In this document: positions 47-46,493 of the stretch, one piece after another
Numbering within the stretch: position 1 is the stretch's first letter
Layout: every line of letters begins with the position of its first letter
Position numbers and translations under genes: made by a program
The notes under the pieces: model-generated
The model's input: the letters and a program-made list of their open reading frames with translations, nothing else
The model's database searches: none
What the model was told of the DNA's origin: nothing
DNA from: Candidatus Nealsonbacteria bacterium DGGOD1a
GTDB lineage: Bacteria > Patescibacteriota > Minisyncoccia > Minisyncoccales > UBA5738
NCBI GenBank assembly: GCA_022530585.1
Contig: CP092821.1
Coordinates: forward strand, 392,222-438,714
Direction of reading: 5' to 3'
Length of the DNA stretch: 46,493 nt

Positions 47-493
47 ATGGTCAATAAACAAAAACTTGGTAGTAAAATAAATAATTTGTTGTTGGATTTA
101 AAAAAAATTTCAAATAGTAAAGGTATTCCGGCTGTTGATAGCAACAAGCAGCCTTGCTTGATAAAATTGTGCGATACTGTGGTTGAGTTTGTACCCGAGT
201 TCAAAAATTGCGAAGATTTTTTATTATTTGGAAAGGAAAATCCGTATTTGCATTTTGGAGTGTTTGGAAGTTTTTTGTGTGAACAAATAGATAAAGATAT
301 TGCTTCCGATGCTATTGAGCGCGGATTTAATTTTGTTAATGAATCATATAATAATATGCGTGATGAGCATATCCAAACCATGCTGTCTACTGAAATATTG
401 GAGAAATTAACGGCTTCTGAAAAGATGATAGTTATCGCAAAGAAATTTTTGATAGGAGATGCGCTTAATCAATTTCAAAAGATGCTTGAATAA
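47..493 (+). CDS. hypothetical protein (148 aa), AT-rich compared with neighbours
   Basis: Intact ATG-to-TAA ORF. The only competitor is an antisense shadow ORF. I cannot name a motif. Confidence 0.55.
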   Translation: MVNKQKLGSKINNLLLDLKKISNSKGIPAVDSNKQPCLIKLCDTVVEFVPEFKNCEDFLLFGKENPYLHFGVFGSFLCEQIDKDIASDAIERGFNFVNESYNNMRDEHIQTMLSTEILEKLTASEKMIVIAKKFLIGDALNQFQKMLE

Positions 494-499
494 AATTTT

Positions 500-785
500 G
501 CGTTAAGCGCATCTTCGCCAACGGCCGGATGTTGGCCACGGTGAGGGGGACGGGTGCCAGCGCCAAGGCCTACAATAACCTCACCGACAGCTGGTATCCC
601 TCGCAAAAGCCTCGGGACAGGCAACAAGGGTTAGACCCTTGTAATACCGTCCTGGTAAGCAGTCGCGTCGTGTTGTTTGGTTTGACTTTGAGGATAATTT
701 TGGGTATGATTGCGATGTCGGAAGCACGATGTTGTGCCGCGACGCGTTTTAACGATGATGTTACCCGTGAGCGGGTTTTTTGTTT
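500..785 (+). ncRNA. candidate structured non-coding RNA or repeat-derived region (unidentified)
   Basis: GC-rich stretch with nested complementary segments: gccaac/gttggc, ggtgagg/cctcacc, acaaggg/cccttgt and cgcgtcg/cgacgcg. It ends in a short hairpin plus T-run. The overlapping 95-aa ORF has an implausible composition. Confidence 0.3.
763..782 (+). terminator. short hairpin plus T-run (acccg-tgag-cgggt-tttttt)
   Basis: A 5-bp GC stem followed by six T, read directly. Confidence 0.35.
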
Positions 786-789
786 GCGT

Positions 790-817
790 TTGACAATGGT
801 CGCGAGTCGGCTATAAT
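790..817 (+). promoter_or_regulatory. sigma70-type promoter, TTGACA-16 nt-TATAAT
   Basis: Perfect consensus -35 at 790-795 and -10 at 812-817 with a 16-nt spacer, upstream of the gene starting at 1016. Confidence 0.5.
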
Positions 818-867
818 TCTATTGTTTTGAATGTGAATTATGAATATATAATCATATCAATAATTAT

Positions 868-994
868 CTTGAATTAAGAAATCATTAAATTCAGATACTT
901 TTAAAGGGGTCTAACCCCTGCGTTATCCCTCGGATTATCTCGGGACAGGCAACAGGGATAGACCCCAAAATACAAAGCATTTCGTAATTCAATA
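868..994. mobile_element. MITE-like element, family A (ends resemble the IS982-like TIR)
   Basis: Ends are cttgaattaagaaatc and atttcgtaattcaata. The internal ggggtcta...tagacccc hairpin is homologous to the copies at 15755 and 39799. Confidence 0.55.
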
Positions 995-1015
995 GAATAT
1001 AATCATAAAAATTTC

Positions 1016-2206
1016 ATGATAAATTGGACAAAAAAAGTGCAGGATCGGATCGCGAAAGTGCCGGTGCGGGGCGGGCGGTCGCAAAAAGAGGTTAACGGCG
1101 GGTTTAACGATCTGGTGTTCGCGCCGGCACAGCTGGCAAAACGGCCGGTGGATTATTTCAAGGAAGAAATCAGTTCAAAAACCATTATCGGCAAAAACAG
1201 TTTGAAGCCGGTGGAAATTGCCGCGCCGATCGTGATCGCGGCGATGTCGTTTGGCGCGCTGTCGAAAAACGCCAAGATCGCGCTGGCAAAAGGTTCAACT
1301 TTGGCGGGCACGATTGCCAATACCGGCGAGGGCGGAATGCTGGCCGAGGAGCGCGAGTTTGCCAAAAAATTGGTGATTCAATACAGCACCGGCCGGTTTG
1401 GCATTGACGAAGAAATTCTGAAGCTTGCCGACATTATTGAAATAAAAATCGGGCAGGGGGCGAAAGGCGGGCAAGGGGGATTGTTGCAAAAAGAAAAGTT
1501 GACTCCCGAAGTGGCATCGGCGCGCCGGGTCAAATTGGGCAAAGATGTTCATTCGCCGGCTTGCCATCCGGATATAATTTGCGCCAAGGATTTGAAAGAT
1601 AAAATCGATTGGTTGAGAAAGTTGTCGGGCGGCGTTCCGATTGTCGTCAAACTGGCCGCCGGCGATGTGAAAGATGATGTCGCCCTTGCCATTGAAGCGA
1701 ATCCCGATGTTATCGCCATTGACGGCGGCTGGGGCGGCACGGGCGCGGCGCCGGAAGTGATGCTTGATGAAATGGGGATACCGGCTTTTCACGCGCTGGT
1801 TTCCGCGCGCGAAATTTTGGATAAAAACAAAGCAGAGCAAGAACTTTGGATTGCCGGAGGGTTCTATACCGGCGGCGATATTGCCAAGGCGCTGGCGCTG
1901 GGCGCGGACGCGGTGTTTATGGGTTCGGGAATGCTGGCGGCGATGGGGTGCGCGGGATGTAATTTGTGCTACACCGGCCAATGCCCAAAGGGCGTGGCCA
2001 CGCAAGATCCCAATTTGGCGAAAAATTTGGACATTGATGCCGCGGCCGGCAATATCGCCAACTTCATTAAGCACTGCAACGAAGAAGTGAAAATGATCGC
2101 CGGCGCGACCGGGCATAACGACATCCATCGGCTTGTCAAAGGCGATTTGCGCGCGCTAACTTTGGAAACCTCCCGAATCGCCGGCGTGAAGCTTGCCGGA
2201 GAATAA
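1016..2206 (+). CDS. glutamate synthase-related FMN-binding domain protein (GltS domain 2-like)
   Basis: 396 aa with GEGG, IEIKIGQGAKGGQGG and DGGWGGTGAAP motifs, typical of the GltB FMN domain family. It has a C-terminal Cys cluster. Confidence 0.8.
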   Translation: MINWTKKVQDRIAKVPVRGGRSQKEVNGGFNDLVFAPAQLAKRPVDYFKEEISSKTIIGKNSLKPVEIAAPIVIAAMSFGALSKNAKIALAKGSTLAGTIANTGEGGMLAEEREFAKKLVIQYSTGRFGIDEEILKLADIIEIKIGQGAKGGQGGLLQKEKLTPEVASARRVKLGKDVHSPACHPDIICAKDLKDKIDWLRKLSGGVPIVVKLAAGDVKDDVALAIEANPDVIAIDGGWGGTGAAPEVMLDEMGIPAFHALVSAREILDKNKAEQELWIAGGFYTGGDIAKALALGADAVFMGSGMLAAMGCAGCNLCYTGQCPKGVATQDPNLAKNLDIDAAAGNIANFIKHCNEEVKMIAGATGHNDIHRLVKGDLRALTLETSRIAGVKLAGE

Positions 2207-2248
2207 GCGCGGCCTTTGCCGATTTATCGTTTGGGCATGGAAATTGAA

Positions 2249-2286
2249 AAACGGGCGCCTGATCCGCACCCCGTTTTTGTTTTTTG
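2249..2286 (+). terminator. intrinsic terminator after the GltS-like gene
   Basis: The stem acgggcgc...gcaccccgt is followed by tttttgtttttt. Confidence 0.5.
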
Positions 2287-2313
2287 CGGCAATGTTTGAT
2301 AAAATGAACGAAT

Positions 2314-2688
2314 ATGGCGAGTTTATTCTTCGAATGGTATTTTTTGGAAATTCCCGCGAAAATCAAAAAAATTTGGGGGAATTATTTGTGGTTTTCCGCC
2401 AAGTATTTCGCGCTGTCCGATATGTTGCGGGATTTTTTAAAACCTTGGAAGGGACTGACATTTTCGCGCCAAAAGCGGGCGTTTGAGATCGGCGACGCGT
2501 TTTCGGCGGCGTTCGGCAATTTGATTTCGCGGATGATCGGCGCGCTGGCGCGGCTGTTTTTTATTGCCGTTGGGTTGGCGGCCGAGGCCGCGGTTTTTAT
2601 CGGAGGAATTGCCGCGTATATCGGGTGGCTGGTTTTGATTCCGGCGATTTTTTATTTTCTGTTCAAAGGTCTTGGACTGTTGGTTTAA
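2314..2688 (+). CDS. small membrane protein (124 aa), probably co-transcribed with the Clp-like ATPase
   Basis: The C-terminal half is hydrophobic (two predicted TM helices). It ends 18 nt before the next start codon. Confidence 0.55.
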   Translation: MASLFFEWYFLEIPAKIKKIWGNYLWFSAKYFALSDMLRDFLKPWKGLTFSRQKRAFEIGDAFSAAFGNLISRMIGALARLFFIAVGLAAEAAVFIGGIAAYIGWLVLIPAIFYFLFKGLGLLV

Positions 2689-2706
2689 TGTTGAACAATA
2701 TATTTT

Positions 2707-5304
2707 ATGGCGGATGATTTTTCAAAGTCGGCGACATTCGAATCGGCGGATCGGGCGAAAGCCGCGCCGCTGGGTTTGTTTTTATTTTTGAAACGCGCCA
2801 GTTTCATTGTTCTGGCCGCGGGGCTGTTGATTGAACTGGCGCGCGCTTTGTTTGCCGGGTTTGCGGCCGCGCCGTTATTTTTGGCGGCGATCAATAAAGA
2901 TTTATTGGCCGGAGCGATTTATCTTTCGCTTTCTTTCTGGATGGCTTTTACCTTGGCCGTTGCTTTCGCGCGCCAGAAGATAATGCGGCCGGGCCGGCAA
3001 CTTGATCAATCCGCGGCGGACGGCAATTTGTACGACTATCTTGATTTTGAAGCCGCGCGCATATTAAAAAAGACGCTATCGCGCCAAAATTTGCCGTTTG
3101 ATAAATTGCTTTTGTATTATATTCTTGATTCGGACAATTTGTCGTTCGCGCTTGACCGGCTTTGCGTTGATCGCGCCACCTTGAAGCGCGATTTGCTGTC
3201 CGGGATGAAAAAAAACTCGAAATCAATTGAGTTGGCGGATTCAAAACCGGCGGAACCTGCCAATCGGGAATCGCGCGACGCCGTGATGGCGGCCGCGCTT
3301 GATATCGCCATGGAAAACGGCAATTCCAAAATAACGGTTTTCGCGCTGTTTTTAGCTTTGGCCAACCGCGACCCGGATTTCCAGAAAATGATGGACGAAC
3401 TGGCGCTTTTGAAAGAGGATGTCGAGTCGGCGGTTTTGTGGCAGATGAACCGGCGGGAATACCGGGTTTTCCGGGGAAAATTTTGGGAGCGCGACAATTT
3501 GCGTTTGCTATTGCCAACGAGTCTGGTGCGCGACCTTGTCGGCGGTTATACCGTTGAATTGGATTCTTATTCAAGGGATTTGTCGCAAAACAGCCCTTTG
3601 CGCCGCGGCGGCGTTGTTTTGCATTTATCGGAAATCCAGCGGCTTGAAGAAGCGTTAACGAAGAAAAGCGGGAATGGCGTGCTGTTGGTGGGCCAAACCG
3701 GCTGCGGCCGCAAGAGCGTTGTTTACAATTTCGCCAACCGCGTGGCCGGTGAAACCGGACCGCGGGCGCTGAAGATGCTGCGGATCATGGAACTGGATAT
3801 GCAGAGCGTTATCGGCCGGAACTCCGACAGATCAAAACTGGTCGCGGTAATAGAGAAAATTTTTTATGAAGCGGTCGCGGCGCGCAATGTGGCGATCGTT
3901 ATTCCGGAAATTCAAAATTATATCGGTTCGCGCGCCGATGGGCGGAAATTGGCGCAAATCGATATTAGCCCGATACTTAACAAATATTTAGCGGTTCCGG
4001 GTTTTCGCGTTATCGGAATCACATCTCCCGAAGGCTTGCGCCGTTCAATCGAAACGGCTGGCGACATTGCCGCAAGGTTCACCAAGATTGAATTGCCGCC
4101 GGTGACGGCGCGGGACGCGATGCGCGTGTTAAAAGAGGAAAGTTTGCGCCGCGAAGCCGCGACCGGGTTGTTTTTTCCGATTGCGACGCTGAAGGAAATC
4201 GTGAAGCTTTGCGAAATGATCGGCGGCGAGCGCGTTTTCCCCGAAGTCGCCGTCGATCTTCTGGATGATATTGTTTCCAATAAAATGAATTCTTCAGGCA
4301 AGATAAACAGAATGGTTTCGCCCGGGGAAGTCGCCGCGTTTTTCACCCGCAAATACAATATGCCGGCCGGCGCGGCGCAAAACGAGGAAAAAGAGATTTT
4401 GCTCAACCTTGAGGATTTGATCCACGAAGGCTTGGTGAACCAAAAAGAAGCGGTGGCGGAAATCGCCAACGCGATGCGGCGTTCGCGCGCGGAAATCAAA
4501 CAACAAAAACGCACCATCGGCAATTTCCTGTTTTTGGGGCCCACCGGCGTGGGCAAAACCGAAACCGCCAAGCAGTTGGCCAAAGTCTATTTCGGTTCGG
4601 AAAAGAATATGATCCGTCTCAATATGGCCGAATATCAGACCGTGGACGCGATTGAAAAATTGATTGGTAATGACCGGAATTCGGGGTATTTAACCGGCGC
4701 GGTGCGCGAAAATCCGTTTTCCTTGCTTTTGATCGATGAAATCGAAAAAGCCGATATCCGCTTGCTGGATATATTTTTGAGTATTTTTGACGAAGGCCGG
4801 ATTACCGATGGGCTTGGCCGCGAGATTGATTTCCGGCACGCGATAATCATCGCCACTTCAAACGCGGGCGCGGAATTGATTCGGGAAGCGGTTGGCAACG
4901 GGATGCCGGCGGCGGATATGAGGAATTTAATTATTGACGAATTGCTTAAAAAAGGCGTTTTCAAACCCGAGTTTGTCAATCGCTTCGACGCGGTGGTAAT
5001 GTATCGGTCGCTTGACGAAAAGGAAATCGAGCAAGTGGCGCGGTTGATGCTGGAAAGCGTGCGGGTCGGTTTGGCTCAAAAGCGCATTGAATTTGAAGTA
5101 ACCGATAAACTGGCGCGAGAATTGGCCCGAATCGGTTTTGATCCGGTTTTCGGCGGCCGGGCGATGCGCCGCGTGATTCAGGACAAAGTTGAAAATCCGA
5201 TTGCCACCGCTTTGCTCGGCGGAGAGTTGAAATCCGGCGGGAAATTCGAAATCAATCCGGTTGAATGGCGGGTGGAGCTGGCGTCGGATCGTGAAAATGG
5301 ATAG
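2707..5304 (+). CDS. membrane-anchored Clp/Hsp100-family AAA+ ATPase (ClpC/ClpB-like) with a degenerate first nucleotide-binding domain
   Basis: 865 aa. The N-terminus is hydrophobic over about aa 20-95. D1 reads GQTGCGRKS and VIPEIQ where GxxGxGKT and hhhDE are expected. D2 is canonical: GPTGVGKTETAK, LLLIDEIEKA and GGRAMRR. Confidence 0.85.
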   Translation: MADDFSKSATFESADRAKAAPLGLFLFLKRASFIVLAAGLLIELARALFAGFAAAPLFLAAINKDLLAGAIYLSLSFWMAFTLAVAFARQKIMRPGRQLDQSAADGNLYDYLDFEAARILKKTLSRQNLPFDKLLLYYILDSDNLSFALDRLCVDRATLKRDLLSGMKKNSKSIELADSKPAEPANRESRDAVMAAALDIAMENGNSKITVFALFLALANRDPDFQKMMDELALLKEDVESAVLWQMNRREYRVFRGKFWERDNLRLLLPTSLVRDLVGGYTVELDSYSRDLSQNSPLRRGGVVLHLSEIQRLEEALTKKSGNGVLLVGQTGCGRKSVVYNFANRVAGETGPRALKMLRIMELDMQSVIGRNSDRSKLVAVIEKIFYEAVAARNVAIVIPEIQNYIGSRADGRKLAQIDISPILNKYLAVPGFRVIGITSPEGLRRSIETAGDIAARFTKIELPPVTARDAMRVLKEESLRREAATGLFFPIATLKEIVKLCEMIGGERVFPEVAVDLLDDIVSNKMNSSGKINRMVSPGEVAAFFTRKYNMPAGAAQNEEKEILLNLEDLIHEGLVNQKEAVAEIANAMRRSRAEIKQQKRTIGNFLFLGPTGVGKTETAKQLAKVYFGSEKNMIRLNMAEYQTVDAIEKLIGNDRNSGYLTGAVRENPFSLLLIDEIEKADIRLLDIFLSIFDEGRITDGLGREIDFRHAIIIATSNAGAELIREAVGNGMPAADMRNLIIDELLKKGVFKPEFVNRFDAVVMYRSLDEKEIEQVARLMLESVRVGLAQKRIEFEVTDKLARELARIGFDPVFGGRAMRRVIQDKVENPIATALLGGELKSGGKFEINPVEWRVELASDRENG

Positions 5305-30115: not shown

Positions 30116-30187
30116 GCCGGCGTAGCTCAGCGGTAGAGCAACTGTTTTGTAAACAGTAGGTCGGGGGTCCGAATCCCTTCGTCGGCT
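30116..30187 (+). tRNA. tRNA-Thr (anticodon TGT)
   Basis: Manual cloverleaf fold. The acceptor stem GCCGGCG/CGTCGGC has one G-U pair. The D arm is GCTC-AGCGGTA-GAGC. The anticodon stem ACTGT/ACAGT carries loop TTTGTAA. The variable loop is 5 nt and the T arm is GGGGG-TCCGAAT-CCCTT. Confidence 0.85.
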
Positions 30188-30261
30188 CATGGCAGCATAA
30201 TTTTACAAGCACTCTCAACGGGGTGCGTTTTGTATTTTGTATCGCGCCATTGGAATAGCCT

Positions 30262-30348: not shown

Positions 30349-31050
30349 ATGAGAAAAGAGCCTTTTTTTGTTGGTGATTTTGTGCATGTTTATAACCGGG
30401 GCAATCGTAGGATGGATATTGTTAGCGATACCAATGACCGTTGGCGGTTTGTGAATATTTTGAGATATTTCAATGACGAAATGTCCTCGGTTAACAAATT
30501 GCGCAATATCTCATTTTTATTGAAATCGAATTTTAACCGGTATAGTTGGCCTAAAGAATGGAAAGCCCAGCGACCGATAGTTAAAATATTGGCATATTGC
30601 CTTATGCCGAATCATTTTCACTTACTTTTGAAAGAAATCAAGGAAGGCGGGATTACCGCATTTATGCGGCGCGTGGGCGTTGGCTATACGAACTATAAAA
30701 ATACAAAAGAAAATAATGTAGGGAAAATTTTTCAAGGTTCCTATAAGGCGCGAACGATTAAAGACGAAATTCATCTGCAATATGTTGATGCATATATACA
30801 AGTTTTTAACCCATTTGAATTAATCGATGGAGCTGACTTAAAAAATAATTTTGATAAGGCTTTTAGGGCGGCCGCAGACTATAATTTCTGCAGCTTGGCC
30901 GAATCGTTTGGAGAAAAGAATAGATTAATTGTGGATCGGGATATTTTGGCGGATAAATTTGAAACAATTGAAAAATACAAAGAATTTGCTTACGATGCGT
31001 TCAGTTGCGGCGGAATTACTAAATTTTTACGCGAGGCGTCGATTGATTAA
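30349..31050 (+). CDS. HUH/Y1 transposase, RAYT/IS200-like (copy 2)
   Basis: HVYNRG, PNHFHLLLKE and YVDAYIQVFNPFE. It aligns along its whole length with 7154..7912. Confidence 0.8.
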   Translation: MRKEPFFVGDFVHVYNRGNRRMDIVSDTNDRWRFVNILRYFNDEMSSVNKLRNISFLLKSNFNRYSWPKEWKAQRPIVKILAYCLMPNHFHLLLKEIKEGGITAFMRRVGVGYTNYKNTKENNVGKIFQGSYKARTIKDEIHLQYVDAYIQVFNPFELIDGADLKNNFDKAFRAAADYNFCSLAESFGEKNRLIVDRDILADKFETIEKYKEFAYDAFSCGGITKFLREASID

Positions 31051-39358: not shown

Positions 39359-39781
39359 ATGGCAAAAAAAGTAAAGAAAGTGATCGGACTTCAAATACAA
39401 GCGGGGAAAGCGACTCCGGCGCCGCCGATCGGGCCGTCTTTGGCGCCGCATGGCATTAACTTGGCGGAATTTGTCAAGCAATTCAACGATCTTTCGCGCC
39501 CGATGATGGGCTTCAAGGTTCCGGTGGAGATCACGATCTACGAGGACAGATCGTTTTCGCTGAAATTAAAGCAGCCGCCGGCATCCGAGCTTTTAAAGAA
39601 AGCCGCCGGCGTTGAAGCCGGTTCGGGCAATCCCAACAAAAAGAAAGTGGGAAAAATCACCAAAGCGCAATTAAAAAAGATCGCCGAACAAAAAATGCCC
39701 GATCTGAACGCCGGCACGATCGAAGCCGCGATGAAAACCATCGCCGGCACCGCCCGCAATATGGGGATCGAGGTGGAATAG
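39359..39781 (+). CDS. rplK: 50S ribosomal protein L11
   Basis: [23 protein letters not shown] motif. Confidence 0.95.
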
Positions 39782-39798
39782 AAGTACATATTTAAATT

Positions 39799-39905
39799 CT
39801 CTTGAATTACTGCGAAACGCTTTGTATTTGGGGTCTATCCCTTGCGTAATCGCAAGGGTTAGACCCCTTCAAAGCATTTGAATTTAATTGTTTCGTAATC
39901 CAAAG
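39799..39905. mobile_element. MITE-like element, family A
   Basis: Ends are tcttgaattactgcgaaac and gtttcgtaatccaaag. The internal perfect hairpin is ggggtctatcccttgcg-taat-cgcaagggttagacccc. Confidence 0.65.
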
Positions 39906-40016
39906 TAAATTCGTATTTAAATATGTATTTAAATACGAACTGACGCAAGCATTGAATTTGAAGCCCCGCGCAAGCGGGTCTTTTGAATAAATTTGGAGGT
40001 GTGGTAGGATTGGGAT

Positions 40017-40313
40017 ATGAAGAAGGTTGGTTTTATCAATTCAAAAAACCGGGCGAAATTGAACGCGATATTTAAGGAATACGGCGTGGTCAAAGCCGCG
40101 GTTTTCGGGTCGTACGCGCGGGGCGACGAAAGGAAGAGGAGCGATATCGATTTTTTGATTAAAATGGAAAGCGGTCGGAGTTTGATGGATTTGGGCGGTT
40201 TGAAAGTCGATCTGGAGAAGCTTTTCGGCCGAAAAGTTGATTTGGTGGAATACGAATGCATCCACCCGAAGCTCAAAAAGGAAATCCTTGGCGAGCAAGT
40301 TCCAATTTTATGA
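40017..40313 (+). CDS. MNT-type nucleotidyltransferase antitoxin (MntA-like), module 1
   Basis: GSYARGDERKRSDIDFLI NTase motif. ATGA overlap with the downstream HEPN gene. Confidence 0.85.
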   Translation: MKKVGFINSKNRAKLNAIFKEYGVVKAAVFGSYARGDERKRSDIDFLIKMESGRSLMDLGGLKVDLEKLFGRKVDLVEYECIHPKLKKEILGEQVPIL

Positions 40314-40669
40314 AAAAAAGAGATCCGGAAATATTGGTTGACGATATAGCGAAATCAATAGCGGCGATCCGGGATTATACTTTGGATTTGAGCAAAAAAG
40401 AGTTTAATGGCGACAAGAAAACACAAGACGCGGTTTTTAAGCGAATTGAAAATATGGGAGAGGCGGTTAAAAATTTGCCATATGATTTCCGCCGGCAATA
40501 TCCGGATATTCCCTGGAAAAAAATTGCGGGAATGAGGGATGTTTTGGTGCACGACTATTTTGGCATTGATACGGAAAAAGTTTGGAATGTGGTCGCAAAC
40601 GAGATTCCCGATCTGAAAGAAAAAATCGCAAAAATTATTGGCGAGAACAAACAAAAGAAATTATTGTAA
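40310..40669 (+). CDS. HEPN/DUF86 toxin (HepT-like), module 1
   Basis: RDVLVHDYFGID (Rx4-6H motif). 119 aa. Confidence 0.85.
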   Translation: MKKRDPEILVDDIAKSIAAIRDYTLDLSKKEFNGDKKTQDAVFKRIENMGEAVKNLPYDFRRQYPDIPWKKIAGMRDVLVHDYFGIDTEKVWNVVANEIPDLKEKIAKIIGENKQKKLL

Positions 40670-40671
40670 TT

Positions 40672-40762
40672 TTTTGAATTATTGAATTCGTATTTTGCAT
40701 TTAAGGTCGTTCCCCCGCCACGGCGGGGTGCGACCTTGTCAAACCGCGTTTCGTTTTTTGAT
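40672..40762. repeat. degenerate family-A MITE-like repeat between the two TA modules
   Basis: ttgaattattgaattcgtattttg and the hairpin aggtcgttcccccgccacggcggggtgcgacct, then gtttcgttttttga. Confidence 0.4.
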
Positions 40763-40865
40763 TTGCCTTTCGCAAGAGTTTTTTTGTTTTAAAAATAACC
40801 GTAAAACAACAACCGAAAATTTGGGTATAGTTTGAGTTGTTTTTAAGGTGTGGTAGGATTGGGAT

Positions 40866-41162
40866 ATGAAGAAGGTTGATTTTATCAATGCAAAGAATCG
40901 GGCGAAATTGAACGCGATTTTCAAGGAATACGGCGTGGTCAAAGCCGCGGTTTTCGGGTCGTACGCGCGGGGCGAGCAAAAAAAGCGAAGCGACATTGAT
41001 TTATTGGTGGAGATGGAAGATGGGCGAACCTTGTTTGATTTGGGCGGGTTGAGCGTTGATTTGGAAGATCTTTTTGGAAAGAAAATCGATCTTGTCGAAT
41101 ATGAAGCGATCCATCCTTTGTTAAAAAAACAAATATTGGCTGACCAAATAAAAATTTTTTGA
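40866..41162 (+). CDS. MNT-type nucleotidyltransferase antitoxin (MntA-like), module 2
   Basis: GSYARGEQKKRSDIDLLV. A 51-nt stretch is identical to module 1. Confidence 0.85.
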   Translation: MKKVDFINAKNRAKLNAIFKEYGVVKAAVFGSYARGEQKKRSDIDLLVEMEDGRTLFDLGGLSVDLEDLFGKKIDLVEYEAIHPLLKKQILADQIKIF

Positions 41163-41166
41163 AGAT

Positions 41167-41526
41167 ATGAAAAGAAGCCAAGAACATTTTATCCAAGATA
41201 TTGCCGATGCGATAGAGAGAATCGAAGAATATACGCGCAATATGGCCGAAAATGAATTCAAAGCCGACAAGAAAACCCAAGAAGCGGTAGTTTATTGTTT
41301 CCATATCATCAGCGAGGCGGCAAGCCATATTTCCGCGGATTTAAAAAAGAAACATTCCGAAATCGAGTGGGCTAAAATCAAGGGGTTTCGCAATAAATTG
41401 ATCCACGAATATTTCGGCGTTAAAATTGAGACCGTTTGGGGCACGGTCCAAAAAGACATTCCCGATCTGAAAGAAAAAATCGCAAAAATCGCCGGTGAAA
41501 CCAAACAAAAGAAATTATTAAAATAA
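41167..41526 (+). CDS. HEPN/DUF86 toxin (HepT-like), module 2
   Basis: RNKLIHEYFGV motif. The C-terminal IPDLKEKIAKI.GE.KQKKLL is shared with module 1. Confidence 0.85.
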   Translation: MKRSQEHFIQDIADAIERIEEYTRNMAENEFKADKKTQEAVVYCFHIISEAASHISADLKKKHSEIEWAKIKGFRNKLIHEYFGVKIETVWGTVQKDIPDLKEKIAKIAGETKQKKLLK

Positions 41527-41531
41527 ATGCA

Positions 41532-41556
41532 AAGCCCCGCGCAAGCGGGTCTTTTG
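41532..41556 (+). terminator. hairpin plus T-run (aagccccgcgcaagcgggtcttttg); an identical copy lies at 39961-39985
   Basis: A 25-nt exact direct repeat brackets both TA modules. Confidence 0.55.
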
Positions 41557-41687
41557 GTTGAAAATCAATCAACGAATCGGGTGGTTTGTCAAGATTGGCG
41601 AATATGATTAAAAAAGATATAATCAACAACTGGGATAAATTCCAATTTCCAATTTTCAAAAAATATCCGCAAAATTAATCAAATCCA

Positions 41688-42026
41688 ATGTCTGTTATAA
41701 TCTATCGGAGCATATATAAAGTTGGTGATAAATGTCCCGCTTGCAATGGGGATAGAACTGGAAAGGGTGGATTGATTGTTAAAAAATGGAGCAAAAACCG
41801 TGCCTTTGCGGGATGTTCAAGGTATCCGGAATGTAAATTCGCGAGCAAAGAGATTGTTTTAACTCAAATTGAAAAAGATAAAAAATTAGGATTAAAAAAG
41901 AGCAACAGACGACGCAAAAAAATTGAGATAGATTCAAATAAATATGCAAACATTACCATTAGACCCTATTGCTACCACAATTATTATCTTTGCCTCCGCA
42001 GTTTTAATCGTTGCGGTTTTCGTTAA
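41688..42026 (+). CDS. small protein with a topoisomerase-type C4 zinc ribbon
   Basis: CPACNG...FAGCSRYPECKF. The C-terminal tail looks unnatural, so the 3' end is uncertain. Confidence 0.55.
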   Translation: MSVIIYRSIYKVGDKCPACNGDRTGKGGLIVKKWSKNRAFAGCSRYPECKFASKEIVLTQIEKDKKLGLKKSNRRRKKIEIDSNKYANITIRPYCYHNYYLCLRSFNRCGFR

Positions 42027-42085
42027 ATTCGTTTTGAAAAAGTAATTTAACCGCTTTAATAGTGAGCGATGCGGTGTGGTAATCT

Positions 42086-42319
42086 TTAATATCTCCAAAA
42101 TCCTATCCCGCGTAAAATAATACCAACCAATTTATACGCAATCAGTCCAATAATAATAAGGGCAAGGTCATCTACAATTGATGTGCTGAAAAACTTGGAG
42201 CCAATAAAAAATAGACCTAAACAAATTAGCCGATATAGGAATGACAACCTCGCCTTTGAATGAATAATATCCCCCTTTTCATTATTGGAAAGATTACTAC
42301 CAAAGGTCATAAAAAACAA
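42086..42319 (-). CDS. small membrane protein (77 aa)
   Basis: Two hydrophobic helices. It is bracketed by copies of the aatagtgagcgat repeat head. Confidence 0.45.
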   Translation of the reverse strand: MFFMTFGSNLSNNEKGDIIHSKARLSFLYRLICLGLFFIGSKFFSTSIVDDLALIIIGLIAYKLVGIILRGIGFWRY

Positions 42320-42437
42320 TAGTGAGCGATAGGGTGGGGTAAATTATACTTTCATGGTTTCAGGCCTCAAATCAGGAATATAAACATATCCAGTTTGTTT
42401 CTCAAAAATAGTTCTAACATTGTCCACGATTCCCCGC
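42318..42437 (+). repeat. about 120-bp direct repeat R1 (upstream of the 3-gene operon)
   Basis: It aligns along its whole length with 44073-44193. A partial copy of its head lies at 42058-42083. Confidence 0.85.
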
Positions 42438-42642
42438 TAACCACTTTTTGATCTTAAATTTTGCTAACCCATCGTGGACATTAGAACTTTTTACATCTCT
42501 TGTGGTAAAAATTATCGAAACATGTAAAAATATAACAAGAGGGGACAGATTTATTTATTTTACATTTTTGGTAGTGTTCTGGCTTACTGGCTGATTCGAC
42601 TATTCATTCGGGATTTAATTGTTATTTAGTATAAATTACACC

Positions 42643-43269
42643 ATGAAATCATTTAAACTCACATCATTTAGTGTTGTCTTTTTGTATTCCGAGCCAATCA
42701 AAGGTGTTGATATTTCGGATGTTAAAAAGGCGTTTAATTTAAGTGGCGAAGATAAAGTAGTTTTGATTGATGCTGGAGGTATTGCCGGCGGGGTGGCAGC
42801 CGGTCTTTTAGCGTTTGATGATCAAAAAAGAGTCGTTTTTGAAATGAATCGAATACTATTTTCAGATGGCAAACCGCAGGATAATGGATTAAATAATTTG
42901 GAAAAATATTTTACGCCGTTATTTAAAGTAATAGAAAAACTACCCCTAAAGGCTTATGGTTTTAATTATGATATTGCCGTAGATTGCGAAGCAGATAATT
43001 ATTGGCAAGATTTCTTGTCAAAAGATATTGAAAAAATCGTTAAGGATCGGAAAGTTGATTCTTTTGGAATCAAATTAGCTCTAATCGTTGGTGAAGGGAA
43101 ATACCGGATTGATATTAATTCTATCGAAGGAGGGGAAAAGAAATCACTATTAATTAAATTAAATGATCATCACGAGGCAACGGCTATTCCAGCCGCAAAG
43201 GAGCTTTTAGCGCAAGCTGAAGAAAGCTTGAAATCGCTAATTGAAATGATAAAGCCTATTTTAAAATAA
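42643..43269 (+). CDS. hypothetical protein (208 aa), first gene of the repeat-bracketed operon
   Basis: ATG at 42643 (the TTG at 42619 is also possible). No motif recognised. It ends 3 nt before the next gene. Confidence 0.6.
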   Translation: MKSFKLTSFSVVFLYSEPIKGVDISDVKKAFNLSGEDKVVLIDAGGIAGGVAAGLLAFDDQKRVVFEMNRILFSDGKPQDNGLNNLEKYFTPLFKVIEKLPLKAYGFNYDIAVDCEADNYWQDFLSKDIEKIVKDRKVDSFGIKLALIVGEGKYRIDINSIEGGEKKSLLIKLNDHHEATAIPAAKELLAQAEESLKSLIEMIKPILK

Positions 43270-43272
43270 GGT

Positions 43273-43791
43273 ATGAACACTACCTACTTACCATTGTCAA
43301 AGGAAACAGGTACGCTCGATACGGAAAACCATAATCCTGCTTTTGTCTTTGCGCCGGGCGGCAACGCGTTAATGGGCGTTTATCAAGCCAACGATACAAC
43401 AATAGATTCATTCTTGATGAATCGTTTAAGTGGCCATTTTGCACCACTGTTTAACGATTTTCAATCAAGAATTTCATTGCTTGAACAAAAGCTAAGTAAT
43501 TTTGGAGAACGGCAACCAAAGCAAATACTCCTAAATAATTTACGCAGTTCAAAGCTTTCGCTGAAGCAACCGCTTTCGGTTGTTTTTGAAAGAAATGAAT
43601 CAGAAATAGTTTGTGATTGTCCCGATATAGATCTTTACGGCGTAGGCGATACGGAGCAAGAAGCCATAACGGATCTTTCCGAAAGTCTAGAAGAATTATA
43701 TTTTACTTTAAAGGAAGAGGGTGAAAAGAATCTTACTCCGCAATTTACTTATATATGGCGTTTTCTGAAAAAGACAATTAAGAAAATTTAA
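43273..43791 (+). CDS. protein with a C-terminal HicB-like (UPF0150-type) domain and an unknown N-terminal half
   Basis: EIVCDCPDIDLYGVGDTEQEAITDLSESLEELY resembles the HicB N-domain pattern (xPxLPGxxxxGxTxEEAxxNxxEAI). TAATG overlap with the next gene. Confidence 0.5.
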   Translation: MNTTYLPLSKETGTLDTENHNPAFVFAPGGNALMGVYQANDTTIDSFLMNRLSGHFAPLFNDFQSRISLLEQKLSNFGERQPKQILLNNLRSSKLSLKQPLSVVFERNESEIVCDCPDIDLYGVGDTEQEAITDLSESLEELYFTLKEEGEKNLTPQFTYIWRFLKKTIKKI

Positions 43792-44063
43792 TGCAATTAA
43801 AAGTAAAACAAGTTGAAAGAATATTTCAAAAATTAGGAATGGAAGTTAAGCCATCACATCATAAACTGGCTTTTTTCCGTCATAACGGCAAATTAATTTT
43901 AAAAACAAGATTATCGAATGGCAGTGGAGATGCAAAGGCAATTGATAAAATAAGGCAAGATTTTAAACTAACAGAGAAAGATTTTTGCGACTTAAGAGAT
44001 TGCCCATTGAGCAAGGAGGGTTATGTAGAAATTCTTAAAGCAAAGGGTATTATTACAGTTTAA
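43791..44063 (+). CDS. HicA-like small protein (putative mRNA interferase toxin) with an extra C-terminal helix
   Basis: VKQVERIFQKLGMEVKPSHHKLAFFRHNGKLILKT resembles the HicA pattern (LxKxGfxxxxxxGSHxxf). 90 aa. Confidence 0.45.
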   Translation: MQLKVKQVERIFQKLGMEVKPSHHKLAFFRHNGKLILKTRLSNGSGDAKAIDKIRQDFKLTEKDFCDLRDCPLSKEGYVEILKAKGIITV

Positions 44064-44072
44064 TTTTTAATA

Positions 44073-44193
44073 AATAATGAGCGACTTGGGTGGGGTAAAT
44101 CAAACTTTTATCGTTTCAGGCCTTAAATCCGGTATGTAAATATACCGGTTTTGATTTACGAAAATAGTTCTAACATTGCCCACGATTCCCCGC
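44073..44193 (+). repeat. about 120-bp direct repeat R2 (downstream of the 3-gene operon)
   Basis: Same orientation as R1. Conserved blocks are tgagcga, ggtggggtaaat, gtttcaggcc and aaaatagttctaacattg.ccacgattccccgc. Confidence 0.85.
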
Positions 44194-44469
44194 CCTTTTG
44201 GTTTTTTGTATTTCGTGTGGGTCGTGCGGGCGAAAACATGGTTTCGCCCCTACAATGCAAATGCGATGCGGGCGGAGATCCGCCTTCGCTAAAGCTACGG
44301 CGAGACAAAGCAATGCCCGCCTCTACGGGTGCAAAATGCGGGTTTTGGTTTATTTTTGCGAGAAATATGAAGGCGGGAGCAAATAAAATAAATTGTTGTA
44401 AAATAAAGCCCCGCATTGATGTTGGCGTGGGGTTTGGAATAAAAAAAGAACCGATCAGATTAATTATTG

Positions 44470-45473
44470 CTTTGAATTACGAAACTCCTAAAAAATGCTA
44501 AAATGACACCAGAGCCGGCGACTGGTAAATCGCCGACTCAACACCAACATGAAAGTTGTAATTCCATTTTACAACGAAATCAGGAAGGTGGTAAGTATTT
44601 TTTCACAACAATTAAAAATTGACAAGCTCACAAACAAAACCGGTCGAAAATTGGCGTTGCCGATAATCACAGTATTATCGCTGGCGATATTCAAGCAAGC
44701 CGGCGGTATCGCTACCAAAAAATCATTATTCACCATTTTCAATCTTCACAAAATCTGCTCCTACAAAACATTGGTCATGAGCATCAATCGTTGGGCAATT
44801 CTGGCATTGCGATTAATGTTTATTATCATGAGGATGAGCAGGAAAAACCAACACATTATCAAACACATTGATTCCACCGATATCCCCGTTTGTTTGTTCA
44901 AAAATGCCAACAAACACAAAGTGATGAAAATGTTCGCCAGTTTCGGCAGAAGCGCAAAAGGTACCTATTTCGGCTTAAAAATGCACCTGATCGCGGATTT
45001 CAAAAGGCAAATACTGGCCATCAAATTCACTTCCGCGAATGTTGACGACCGCGATGTCGTTATCAAATTATCCAAGAAATTGAACGGCGTGTTCATTGCC
45101 GACGCCGGATATGTTTCCGAGAAATTGCAAAGAAAATTCCACCGCGCCCGCAAAAGAATTTTGCTGGTGAAAGCCAGGAACAACATGAAAAAAGTCATCA
45201 CTCAATTCCAGAAAAAATTATATGATACCAGAATGATCATTGAATTGAATTTTCGCAATTTGAAAATGTTTTACGGGCTGATTACCAGCCTCCCCAAATC
45301 AGTGGACGGATATTTGTCCAATTATATCTACAGTCTGCTGGCTTATCAAATTATTTAGTTGTGAACCGTGAAAAAACTTACCGCAATCGAATGTTTTCCG
45401 CCAAACCCCGCGCCGCGGGCAGGTTTTTGTTTCGCAATCGTTTTTCTTTTAAAGCGGGTTTCGTAATTCAAAG
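44470..45473 (+). mobile_element. IS982-family-like insertion sequence (1004 bp) with 16-bp perfect TIRs and a 6-bp TSD
   Basis: TIR ctttgaattacgaaac at 44470-44485 and its exact reverse complement at 45458-45473. TTATTG lies on both flanks, at 44464-44469 and 45474-45479. Confidence 0.85.
44549..45358 (+). CDS. DDE transposase, IS982-family-like
   Basis: HIDSTDIPVC, FIADAGYVS and IIELNFRNLK supply the D, D, E candidates. Its size of 269 aa and the 1-kb element fit IS982. Confidence 0.75.
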   Translation: MKVVIPFYNEIRKVVSIFSQQLKIDKLTNKTGRKLALPIITVLSLAIFKQAGGIATKKSLFTIFNLHKICSYKTLVMSINRWAILALRLMFIIMRMSRKNQHIIKHIDSTDIPVCLFKNANKHKVMKMFASFGRSAKGTYFGLKMHLIADFKRQILAIKFTSANVDDRDVVIKLSKKLNGVFIADAGYVSEKLQRKFHRARKRILLVKARNNMKKVITQFQKKLYDTRMIIELNFRNLKMFYGLITSLPKSVDGYLSNYIYSLLAYQII

Positions 45474-45737
45474 TTATTGATCAGTTATTCCCCACTCTTT
45501 CATTTCCTTGGGGTTGAGGATGATGCGTCCATAGATTATGTGGCGCTTTTTGTCCTTGTTCCCGCGTATAAGAAAAACACCGGGGTTATCTTCTATGGAA
45601 TCAATTTGCAGCGTTGGCAATTCTTCTTTAGGGAATGCTTCACGAAACACTTCAAGCAAATCAGATTTTTTCGTTGTGTTTTTTAAAGCCGAGTTTTTTA
45701 GTTTTCCCCTTATATCGTACAATGCGAAAACTACCAT
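45474..45737 (-). CDS. hypothetical small protein (87 aa) wedged between two IS elements
   Basis: This C-terminal part of the 229-aa minus ORF has a natural composition and starts at an internal ATG. The upstream part is antisense to the IS30 transposase. Confidence 0.4.
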   Translation of the reverse strand: MVVFALYDIRGKLKNSALKNTTKKSDLLEVFREAFPKEELPTLQIDSIEDNPGVFLIRGNKDKKRHIIYGRIILNPKEMKEWGITDQ

Positions 45738-45783
45738 TTCGAAAATTCTCTTTTGAAATGCAACTTCGGTAAAATGAAGTTGT

Positions 45784-46493
45784 ATGAAAAAACAAATCCG
45801 CAAAAAACGAAAAAAGAAGCGGCATTTTCGCCATTTGAAGCAAACCGACCGGGATCGAATCGAAGCGCTGTTGAATGCCGGCCACAAACAAGAGGAAGTT
45901 GCCAAAATACTTGATTTTGATGCCAGCGCCATCAGCCGGGAGATGAAAAGAAAACGCAAGAACGGCAAATACTCGGCGCTGACCGCCCAGCTGAAAGCAA
46001 GAGCGAAAAGATTAAACAGCAAGCATCCGGGAATGAAGGTTGAGCAATATCCGGAGTTAAGGGAACAAATCATCAAAGGGTTGAAAGACCACCGCTCCCC
46101 GGATGAGATCGCCGGGCGGATGAAGCGTGAAAAGCAAAACCCGCGGGTCGGCGCCAATGCCATCTACAAATGGCTGTACAGCGCTTGGGGCCAGGCATAT
46201 TGCCCGCTTCTTTGCACCAAGCGATATCATCCGCGCAAACAGAAAAAGAAAACCAAAAGAGAAATGATTCCTAATCGTATTTCCATCAAAAAGAGGCCAA
46301 AGCGAGGAATCCACGCCGAAGGCGATCTGTTTGTTTCGCCGACCAAAACCGGCAGCCAAAACAGCGGCGCAATCATTTGCGTTCCAGCCTCGAAACTGCT
46401 TGCCGGCACGATGATTGAAAGCAAAAAACCGGCCGTAATGAGGCTGGCCGTTAAAAGCATGTTGTTGGATTTGAGCATTGATGATCTGACTTT
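45784..46493 (+). CDS. IS30-family transposase (5' complete, runs off the window end)
   Basis: My translation from the ATG at 45784 gives LKQTDRDRIEALLNAGHKQEEVAKILDFDASAISREMKR (HTH). It continues with SPDEIAGRM, AIYKWLY and IKKRPKRGIHAEGDL. There is no stop before the window end, so it is absent from the ORF track. Confidence 0.85.
   Translation, partial: MKKQIRKKRKKKRHFRHLKQTDRDRIEALLNAGHKQEEVAKILDFDASAISREMKRKRKNGKYSALTAQLKARAKRLNSKHPGMKVEQYPELREQIIKGLKDHRSPDEIAGRMKREKQNPRVGANAIYKWLYSAWGQAYCPLLCTKRYHPRKQKKKTKREMIPNRISIKKRPKRGIHAEGDLFVSPTKTGSQNSGAIICVPASKLLAGTMIESKKPAVMRLAVKSMLLDLSIDDLT

Follow-up and report, generated by a model that had tools for sequence, protein, structure and literature searches.

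We examined a 46,493-nt stretch of the Candidatus Nealsonbacteria bacterium DGGOD1a genome (contig CP092821.1, positions 392,222 to 438,714; the whole stretch is called the window below), in which a three-gene operon lies between two copies, R1 and R2, of a repeat of about 120 nt (Table 1). A reading made earlier from the letters and their open reading frames (ORFs), here called the sequence-only reading, had described R1 and R2 as same-orientation copies of one sequence, had noticed a third partial copy of its head (R0), and had proposed that a tightly coupled operon encoding HicB-like and HicA-like proteins is carried on a new kind of repeat-bounded cassette. The repeats and the coupling were borne out. 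R1 (42318-42437) and R2 (44073-44193) are direct repeats with 82.6% identity over 121 nt (blastn E 8e-30), and R0 is identical to the repeat head at 23 of 25 bases (42058-42082), where shuffled sequences led us to expect 0 such matches. Genes 1 and 2 are separated by a 3-nt gap and genes 2 and 3 overlap in TAATG.

Table 1. Features of the repeat-bounded islet, in positions of the window; the N=1 core is a short form of the repeat core described in the text
Feature	Position	Strand	Description
R0	42058..42083	-	Remnant with the head of the repeat only; TTACCACACCGCATCGCTCACTATT on the minus strand
Small ORF between R0 and R1	42086..42319	-	74-77 aa, hydrophobic; antisense to the usual cargo direction
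R1	42318..42430	-	Derived from the 3' end of a large serine recombinase gene; head 42318-42342, core ATCGTGGACAATGTTAGAACT at 42410-42430
Scrap 1	42431..42437	+	TCCCCGC, as at the 3' end of tRNA-Trp; direct repeat to the left of the operon cassette
Cassette B	42438-44186		TCCCCGC on both sides (42431-42437, 44187-44193); about 1.75 kb, without recombinase
Cassette left end and leader	42438..42642	+	33-nt spacer, inverted N=1 core ATCGTGGACATTAGAACT (42471-42488)
Gene 1	42643..43269	+	208 aa, unannotated family; conserved R70, G106, N108, N174, H176
Gene 2	43273..43791	+	172 aa; N-terminal extension of about 95 aa, HicB-like/antitoxin-like C-terminal domain
Gene 3	43791..44063	+	90 aa; HicA-like fold, near-invariant H24, two extra C-terminal helices
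R2	44073..44186	-	Right end of the cassette; head 44073-44098, core 44166-44186
Scrap 2	44187..44193	+	TCCCCGC again, tRNA-Trp-like; right direct repeat of the cassette

On the minus strand R has the layout of a gene end: a core, ATCGTGGAC-NNNN-TTAGAACT, is followed by a tail encoding ..YIYIPDL.., a stop codon and then the 25-nt head. The open tail frame ends in ...IVDNVRTIFEKQTGYVYIPDLRPETMKV in R1 (stop at about 42344) and in ...IVGNVRTIFVNQNRYIYIPDLRPETIKV in R2, and many of the differences between the two copies are synonymous in this frame. Public metagenomes and GTDB genomes were scanned with the core pattern ATCGTGGRC-N1-4-TTAGAACT, and at least 120 stretches were taken from each; the matches listed lie on contigs of Patescibacteria and several other phyla. 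All loci were oriented with their flanking genes forward, which corresponds to the plus strand of the window. In locus L079 the minus-strand frame of R extends upstream as an ORF of 509 aa that ends in ...NWRNIVDNVRTILQQQTEYIYIPDLSPRV and a stop. This protein passes as a large serine recombinase (LSR), having a resolvase catalytic domain as well as recombinase and zinc-ribbon domains, and it matched the solved LSRs SPbeta YokA (residues 6-399, E 1.4e-8) and, in the C-terminal domains, A118 integrase (residues 213-415, E 9e-6). A tblastn search with it recovered R1 at E 3.4e-7 through its C-terminus and R2 at E 3.1e-5, and an nhmmer profile of R gave E 4e-29 for R1, which is itself among the 19 seed sequences, and E 4e-20 for R2.

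The repeat family as a whole varies in the manner of coding DNA. Across 55 distinct copies the variation at the three codon positions was 0.81, 0.54 and 1.15, and in-frame stops were present in 2 of the 55 copies as compared with 47 and 55 in the other two frames, a comparison that is somewhat biased by the way in which copies were selected. The conserved stretch of orphan copies has a sharp start, some 9 nt ahead of the core, and stops about 125 nt further on, at ...TTTACCCTACCCnnCTACTCACTAT / CTCACTAT; most of their frames have no start codon and begin at the junction. Rfam, searched over 41900-44600 both at the gathering threshold and with E<=10 allowed, gave no match at the repeats. Because of the LSR reading frame, the codon-position pattern and this negative Rfam result, we regard R as a piece of a recombinase gene and not as an RNA gene or a miniature inverted-repeat transposable element (MITE); judged from these comparisons it is best described as the last ~25 codons and the 3' flank of an LSR gene. 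A tRNA-like or small RNA gene and a TnpB/IscB guide-RNA scaffold had also been entertained for R and were dropped when the LSR frame and the tRNA scraps described below emerged. Most listed R copies are without a recombinase; the few related loci that do contain an LSR are L079, L015, L206, L068 and L073. In IMG/VR, scans for the core and the LSR returned chance matches only, plus one LSR without the tail, and the elements that bear R are not evidently phages.

Copies of R stand 0.4-3 kb downstream of a tRNA gene on the same strand (Trp, Gln, Asn or Ser), and the bases directly after the core copy the 3' end of that tRNA, for instance GCGGAGCCA with tRNA-Asn and GCCCTGCCA with tRNA-Trp. A same-strand tRNA lies at most 6 kb upstream of 24 cores; directly behind 13 of these cores stands a 6-mer that agrees exactly with the tRNA 3' end, and most others are one base off. 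Related loci have the arrangement by which tRNA islands are recognized, in which an intact tRNA marks one end and its 3' part, displaced, is repeated at the other. In the window, the junction common to R1 and R2 is ...CCACGAT followed directly by TCCCCGC. The position of R relative to tRNAs and the scraps also led us to drop another candidate target, R-like sequence in resident LSR genes, in favor of tRNAs.

Where in the recombinase gene the exchange would take place is indicated by locus L206, in which the body of an LSR (aa 1-483, antisense) adjoins tRNA-Ser(tga) exactly at TCCGCCA, and by intact LSR genes, which read TGGCGGAAC across the same point. The split gene and the intact ones together place the recombination site within the last ~25 codons of the recombinase, so that integration would truncate the gene. 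LSR attachment (att) sites are compact: within about 40-50 bp, inverted half-sites flank a central dinucleotide, and the half-site motif of attP is offset by ~5 bp relative to that of attB. The segment shared with the tRNA is 20 nt away from the motif GTTCTAA of the core and 15 nt away from the T-loop motif GTTCGAA of the tRNA, a 5-bp offset that resembles, for one arm, the difference between attP and attB half-sites. In arrays, the R of a neighboring cassette can rebuild an intact-looking LSR gene (L073, L079), and loss and restoration of the last ~25 residues could switch recombinase activity. A separate observation concerns the other end of the recombinase gene: in L079 (reverse strand 60-180) and L015 an inverted copy of LSR codons 452-484 lies upstream of the recombinase start, preceded by the T-loop-like arm GGTTCGGATATTTTCAAATACACA and ending exactly at CCGCCA. 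This copy was considered as an N=1 core and rejected as such; it appears instead to be a second att-like site opposing the first.

Among the matches listed, the nhmmer profile recognized 188 copies of R, distributed over 141 loci, of which 34 have 2-5 copies. Adjacent copies have the same orientation in 46 of 47 pairs, at a median spacing of 995 nt (range 359-3464), and the ORFs between them mostly run forward, antisense to R (69 of 82). The 68 proteins encoded between copies fall into 60 clusters. Their Pfam families include ParE, Fic/Doc with a MazE-type antitoxin, SocA/Panacea, DUF4160/DUF2442 and RibD_C as well as serine hydrolases, MscL, NUDIX, SAM synthetase, radical SAM and others. The alternation of repeat and gene(s) that had been read from the window is thus real, since the same repeat family separates unrelated genes in the arrays of other genomes. 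Array L147 consists of five regular units, in each of which a tRNA-Gln scrap is followed by a terminator hairpin, then by a short core in inverted orientation (ATGGACGTTAGAAC), an extended -10 sequence (TGGTAGAAT), cargo and finally R. More generally the short or N=1 core, ATCGTGGAC-N-TTAGAACTTTT, is found 33-45 nt after a tRNA or after R and its scrap, and R follows downstream in most informative loci. On the strength of the L147 units and of the placement of the N=1 core, we take each unit to consist of a promoter-bearing left-end module and of R as its right end. Isolated R heads of 25-40 nt also occur, as at L003 2741-2783 and L001 11513-11567, some of them directly after the operon where the rest of R is absent.

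The operon of the window is delimited in the same way. We assign cassette B to 42438-44186 because R1 and R2 end alike and because the leader of the related loci L003-L006 starts directly after a tRNA-Trp, which ends in ...GCGCCCCCG immediately before CT. The leader in the window carries an extended -10-like sequence, TGGTAAAAAT at 42503-42512, a putative promoter, and is 91% identical over 205 nt to that of L003-L006; in L035, L048, L147 and others, too, this module comes after a tRNA or an R copy. The operon proteins of L003-L006 are 93-97% identical to those of the window and the homology stops at the tRNA end. On the 3' side of the operon these loci retain 39 nt from the start of R, with 97% identity to R2, and then a deleted or diverged remainder. 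On the plus strand of R2 a hairpin (44129-44148) and then a run of T form a terminator-like structure for the operon. Because tRNA-Trp and LSR are both missing and the array stands after rplK, the window copy appears to be displaced or decayed, and the window looks like an array piece derived from a tRNA-Trp site with an insertion sequence (IS) next door.

These boundaries also account for the palindrome at R1, an 80-nt structure with a 3-nt bulge that the sequence-only reading had taken for the folded site of a single-strand recombinase. The palindrome is present and non-random: its arms are 42410-42430 (21 nt) and, inverted, 42471-42488 (18 nt), and its folding energy as single-stranded DNA is -13.9 kcal/mol (z = -6.0), which 0 of 200 shuffles equaled. 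Its interpretation has to be changed. The palindrome is made up of the R1 core, the scrap, the 33-nt spacer and the inverted short core of cassette B; R2 was checked for an inverted partner and has none, so that the palindrome is confined to R1, and LSRs use double-stranded att sites. Rather than a site for single-strand recombination, the palindrome is the place where one cassette's right end meets the left end of its neighbor, and circularization of a single unit would yield the same arrangement. Nor is the repeat of a novel kind, as had been proposed, but the 3' end of an LSR gene with an att junction and a tRNA 3' scrap.

The cargo of cassette B probably comprises, by sequence and predicted structure, a HicAB-like toxin-antitoxin (TA) pair with a third partner. 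HicA toxins are characterized by a dsRBD-like alpha1-beta1-beta2-beta3-alpha2 fold with a catalytic His in the sheet, and HicB antitoxins by a toxin-binding, partial RNase H-like domain at the N-terminus. The gene 1 family (~205 aa, 34 clusters at 50% identity) had no match in Pfam, NCBIfam, PADLOC, PHROG or the PDB; its AlphaFold2 model was unusable (pLDDT, the model confidence score, 44) and the Foldseek matches of that model were meaningless (TM, the fold similarity score, <0.3). Residues 101-152 of gene 2 matched PHROG 497, 'HicB-like', at E 3.7e-4, as did 11 of 13 family members in all, and 12 of 13 members matched the Pfam PHD_like antitoxin model, though even the best of these matches (E 3.2e-4) falls short of the cut-off of the model. 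Gene 3 matched no hidden Markov model (HMM), PHROGs included. Its AlphaFold2 model (mean pLDDT 71) has helices and strands at H5-15, E18-20, E25-31, E34-41 and H46-58, an alpha-beta-beta-beta-alpha order, and then two helices; H24, conserved in at least 90% of the family, lies at the start of beta2 and would be the counterpart of the catalytic His of HicA. Family profiles of genes 1, 2 and 3 against PDB sequences gave nothing relevant, PADLOC found nothing among the operon proteins, and the hydrophobic ORF between R0 and R1 had no family match in Pfam, NCBIfam, PADLOC or PHROGs. The HicB and HicA labels given in the sequence-only reading therefore hold in part: weak HicB-like and HicA-like signals are present in genes 2 and 3, respectively, and matches to curated models are not.

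The association of gene 1 with the other two genes, which had been put forward for checking, recurs elsewhere. The three genes are found together in at least four other contig families with differing neighbors (L001/L002, L003-L006, L007-L010 and a 1.8-kb contig with P0005, P0017 and P0029). A two-gene form also exists, in which gene 2 is cut to its C-terminal ~95-133 aa and is followed by gene 3 (L011, L012/13, P0019-P0025). The N-terminal extension of gene 2 is restricted to three-gene loci and gene 1 is present only where the extension is; from this confinement we argue that gene 1 interacts with gene 2.

We consider it reasonably probable that R1 and R2 are attR-like right-end junctions of small cassettes integrated by an LSR at tRNA 3' ends, with the operon as cargo, most likely a type II TA system. 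The LSR would insert circular elements into the 3' ends of tRNA genes by a crossover within the 7-10 nt that both share, the att site on the side of the element being located inside the last ~25 codons of the recombinase gene. With the att site in the gene end, every cassette would carry the gene tail at its right end, and integration would place a copy of the tRNA 3' end, 7-10 nt long, behind the tail. Successive insertions at one tRNA would displace older cassettes outward and so build a same-orientation array of tRNA, cassette, R, scrap, cassette, R and scrap, in which recombinase-less derivatives that retain both ends and the promoter would pile up behind the tRNA. Cassette B, if mobile at all, would have its LSR supplied in trans. 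Gene 3 would act as a HicA-like RNase toxin neutralized by the HicB-like C-terminal domain of gene 2, and gene 1 would dock on the N-terminal extension of gene 2 as a third, modulating partner.

Several observations weigh against this proposal. The window contains two TCCCCGC scraps and no tRNA-Trp, its sole tRNA being tRNA-Thr (30116-30188), and a tblastn search for the LSR body in the window and in cassette B found none. At L007-L010 the operon is present and R is not detectable. Public contigs aligned to 39500-46400, which are contigs and not reads, gave no precise excision or circle joint for cassette B. The split recombinase gene was observed at one locus only, L206. There is no matching partner arm at the presumed crossover, the inverted N=1 core, 33-45 nt off, being too distant for a canonical LSR half-site, and tandem reuse of an LSR attB is unexpected from textbook LSR behavior. 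As to the cargo, hhalign paired YGVGDTEQEAI of gene 2 with LTQGETVAEAM of E. coli HicB (the G-x-T-x-x-E-A motif) at an E of 0.29, which is not significant; gene 2 matched no DNA-binding family and ends ~20 residues after its HicB-like domain, leaving it without the C-terminal ribbon-helix-helix or helix-turn-helix domain of canonical HicB. Gene 3 and 15 family members had no match to HicA models (Pfam HicA_toxin, NCBIfam HicA) even at E<=1, and hhalign of gene 3 with E. coli HicA gave a non-significant E of 0.15. The statistics of the Foldseek search with gene 3 were likewise weak: the best PDB match was 1WHZ, which we take to be a HicA-family protein, at a probability of 0.87, TM 0.50/0.61 and E 0.22, and no match had an E<=0.001.

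Some of these findings would also be expected if each R marked a once-complete, recombinase-bearing tRNA island from which the LSR and most of the cargo were later deleted in place, the operon cassette never moving alone. Such fossils would fit the frequency of core-only, tail-only and head-only remnants (57, 69 and 9 of the 188 copies), the internal deletion in the R copy of L003, the lack of an LSR in the window and the excision joints not seen in contigs. We nevertheless think this unlikely, since the same 1.75-kb unit with its left-end module is found both at a genuine tRNA-Trp (L003-L006) and in the window array, the homology stopping exactly at the scrap, since the units of L147 are regular from scrap, terminator, N=1 core and promoter through cargo to R, and since independent decay is not expected to keep both ends so uniform. 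Two other views of the repeats have far less in their favor. That R is a dispersed MITE-like repeat, or a small functional gene or RNA, unconnected to site-specific integration, is very improbable: the numerous orphan copies across phyla, the short open frame retained in most of them and the terminator-like hairpin on the plus strand of R2 are outweighed by the absence of both terminal inverted repeats and a target-site duplication, the ends being the tRNA scrap and CTCACTAT, by an orientation that is fixed relative to the upstream tRNA in whose 3' bases the copies end, by orphan frames that mostly begin at the junction without a start codon, and by an Rfam search that was empty even at its most permissive setting. 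A dispersed MITE had been named beforehand as an outcome that would count against a cassette; with one pair excepted, adjacent copies are co-oriented and they have no inverted-repeat ends. The least credible view, and one that is largely refuted, is that the repeats are folded sites like attC, belonging to a novel cassette system on which a single-strand recombinase of the integron or IS200/IS605 type acts. It would suit the cassette-like layout with differing cargo between repeats, the well-folding 80-nt palindrome with its 3-nt bulge and the IS200-like Y1 transposase gene 12 kb off (30349-31050), whereas the palindrome is missing at R2 and is not part of the repeat, the repeat stems from the coding sequence of a serine recombinase, the junctions bear tRNA scraps, and each cassette has a promoter-like module of its own, unlike integron cassettes.

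For the operon, the alternative is that it is not a TA system, and that gene 1 is, for example, a small enzyme accompanied by two accessory or regulatory proteins, or that the three genes form a defense system of other logic. This is a possibility that we hold to be doubtful. Genes 1 and 3 lack any HMM match, the conserved polar residues R70, N108, N174 and H176 of gene 1 suggest catalysis, and the PADLOC result was empty. A TA module is favored over this by the top fold match of gene 3, which is to a HicA-family structure, by the alignment of the G-x-T-x-x-E-A motif of gene 2 with that of E. coli HicB together with the repeated matches to PHROG and Pfam antitoxin models, by the existence of the two-gene form with short gene 2 and gene 3, and by neighbors and sister cassettes that are rich in TA pairs.

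Among known systems, the R cassettes are closest to tRNA-associated islands. Like them, Islander-type islands and tycheposons integrate at tRNA 3' ends, are flanked by a tRNA and a displaced partial tRNA, and are displaced by repeated integration, which scatters degenerate remnants and partial tRNAs; a minority of the tycheposons of Prochlorococcus use an LSR (bioRxiv 10.1101/2020.12.28.424599). The R cassettes differ in being very small (median about 1 kb) and mostly without an integrase, in having as their conserved junction a 125-nt piece of the recombinase gene itself, and in their hosts, which are mainly Patescibacteria of the candidate phyla radiation (CPR), with related cores in several other phyla. 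A second parallel is offered by SCCmec and the Enterococcus cassette chromosome (ECC), in which the LSRs CcrAB insert cassettes of highly diverse cargo at a single conserved gene's 3' end, the att sites are direct repeats of about 50 bp, attR and the circular att site containing inverted repeats, and recombinase-less remnants persist, as they do here (PMC6222049). The target differs, however, being a tRNA gene for the R cassettes and rlmH for SCC; the att site of R overlaps the C-terminal codons of its own recombinase, and the R cassettes are at least ten-fold smaller.

An att site inside the recombinase gene has its precedent in the SSV1-type archaeal integrases, tyrosine recombinases with attP inside the int gene and a tRNA as target, in which the gene is split near the middle. 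They share with the LSR described here the location of the att site, the tRNA target and the splitting of the gene by integration, whereas the enzyme here is a serine recombinase that loses only its last ~25 residues (L206). The R arrays resemble integron attC cassettes in their short units of 1-3 genes, the recurring site of ~120 nt and the commonness of TA modules; they differ from them in that R lacks a palindrome of its own such as attC has, the enzyme linked to R is a serine recombinase and not the tyrosine recombinase IntI, promoter-like modules are part of the cassettes, and the site is made up of recombinase-coding DNA and a tRNA scrap. Arrays of this kind were not found described in the literature searched, and each ingredient has precedents; the copy in the window is an unremarkable and partly decayed case.

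With E. coli HicAB the operon would share a small alpha-beta-beta-beta-alpha protein with a conserved His that is translationally coupled to a HicB-like protein with the G-x-T-x-x-E-A motif. It departs from HicAB in its order, antitoxin before toxin, in the 30-aa two-helix extension of gene 3, in a gene 2 that has a 95-aa N-terminal extension and no DNA-binding domain, in its obligatory-looking third gene and in the lack of a match to any curated HicA or HicB model. Three-component TA systems include toxin-antitoxin-chaperone systems, omega-epsilon-zeta and paaR-paaA-parE. In these, as may be the case here, the extra protein co-evolves with an extension of the antitoxin or with a missing antitoxin function; gene 1, however, resembles no known third component and is the first gene of the operon.

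A wider reading, which we put forward as speculative and rather unlikely in its full extent, is that Patescibacteria, and with variant tails several other phyla, own an integron-like platform for gene capture by an LSR, with tRNAs as anchors and promoter-bearing cassettes of ~1 kb that have no recombinase, are stacked behind the tRNAs and are moved in trans, in which integration and neighboring cassettes remove or restore the last 25 codons of the LSR and so exert feedback, and that the three-gene module is a new tripartite, HicAB-derived system spread by this platform. CPR/Patescibacteria have tiny genomes and few recognized mobile elements. If the cassettes are active, they would provide a simple, sequence-definable route of gene exchange in these bacteria, with tRNA genes serving as docks for stacked modules of 1-3 genes such as TA systems, small enzymes and membrane proteins. 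To delimit accessory DNA in such genomes, the conserved 21-nt core and its tRNA scrap offer a marker of practical use, and the recombinases would be candidate tools for tRNA-directed integration. An att site in the C-terminus of the LSR suggests a built-in switch between the integrated and the free state, and the three-gene module is a candidate tripartite variant of HicAB that comes with an unannotated protein family of ~205 aa.

The islet containing cassette B follows nusG and rplK and is set among two MNT (nucleotidyltransferase)/HepT pairs and an IS; its G+C content is 34-40% at 41-45 kb as compared with about 48% elsewhere. To the left of R0 lie a Zn-ribbon protein and then the MNT/HepT pairs, which together may be older cargo. 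The two MNT/HepT TA pairs (40017-41526) are in tandem, and a stretch of 300 nt is duplicated there with 78% identity at a distance of 849 nt. Metagenome runs X1-X3 contain the sequence at 100% of its words. In run X12, low-depth contig joints 41656-44459 and 41668-45738 omit the islet from the Zn-ribbon gene to R2 or to the IS, respectively; the shorter sides of these joints are 21-24 nt, and they are maybe strain variants or assembly chimeras. Directly after R2 is a GC-rich repeat block (44194-44350) of very high depth in one metagenome, from which GCCTTCGCTAAAGCTACGGCGAGAC is also found in L001 and L012 and adjoins R or tRNA junctions in L206, L187 and L041. The IS (44464-45473) encodes a DDE_Tnp_1_3 transposase (44549-45358) and has perfect 16-nt terminal inverted repeats (44470-44485 / 45458-45473). 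Contigs of two runs join 44463 to 45474, which indicates that the IS is absent in part of the population. At 39799-39906 there is a miniature element of ~108 nt; its ends, CTCTTGAATTACTGCGAAAC ... GTTTCGTAATCCAAAG, are similar to the inverted repeats that the IS carries at 44470, and the contig word depth at 39731-39961, 10-40 times that of its neighbors, indicates that this element is multi-copy. The IS200-like Y1 transposase gene, for its part, lies immediately downstream of tRNA-Thr.

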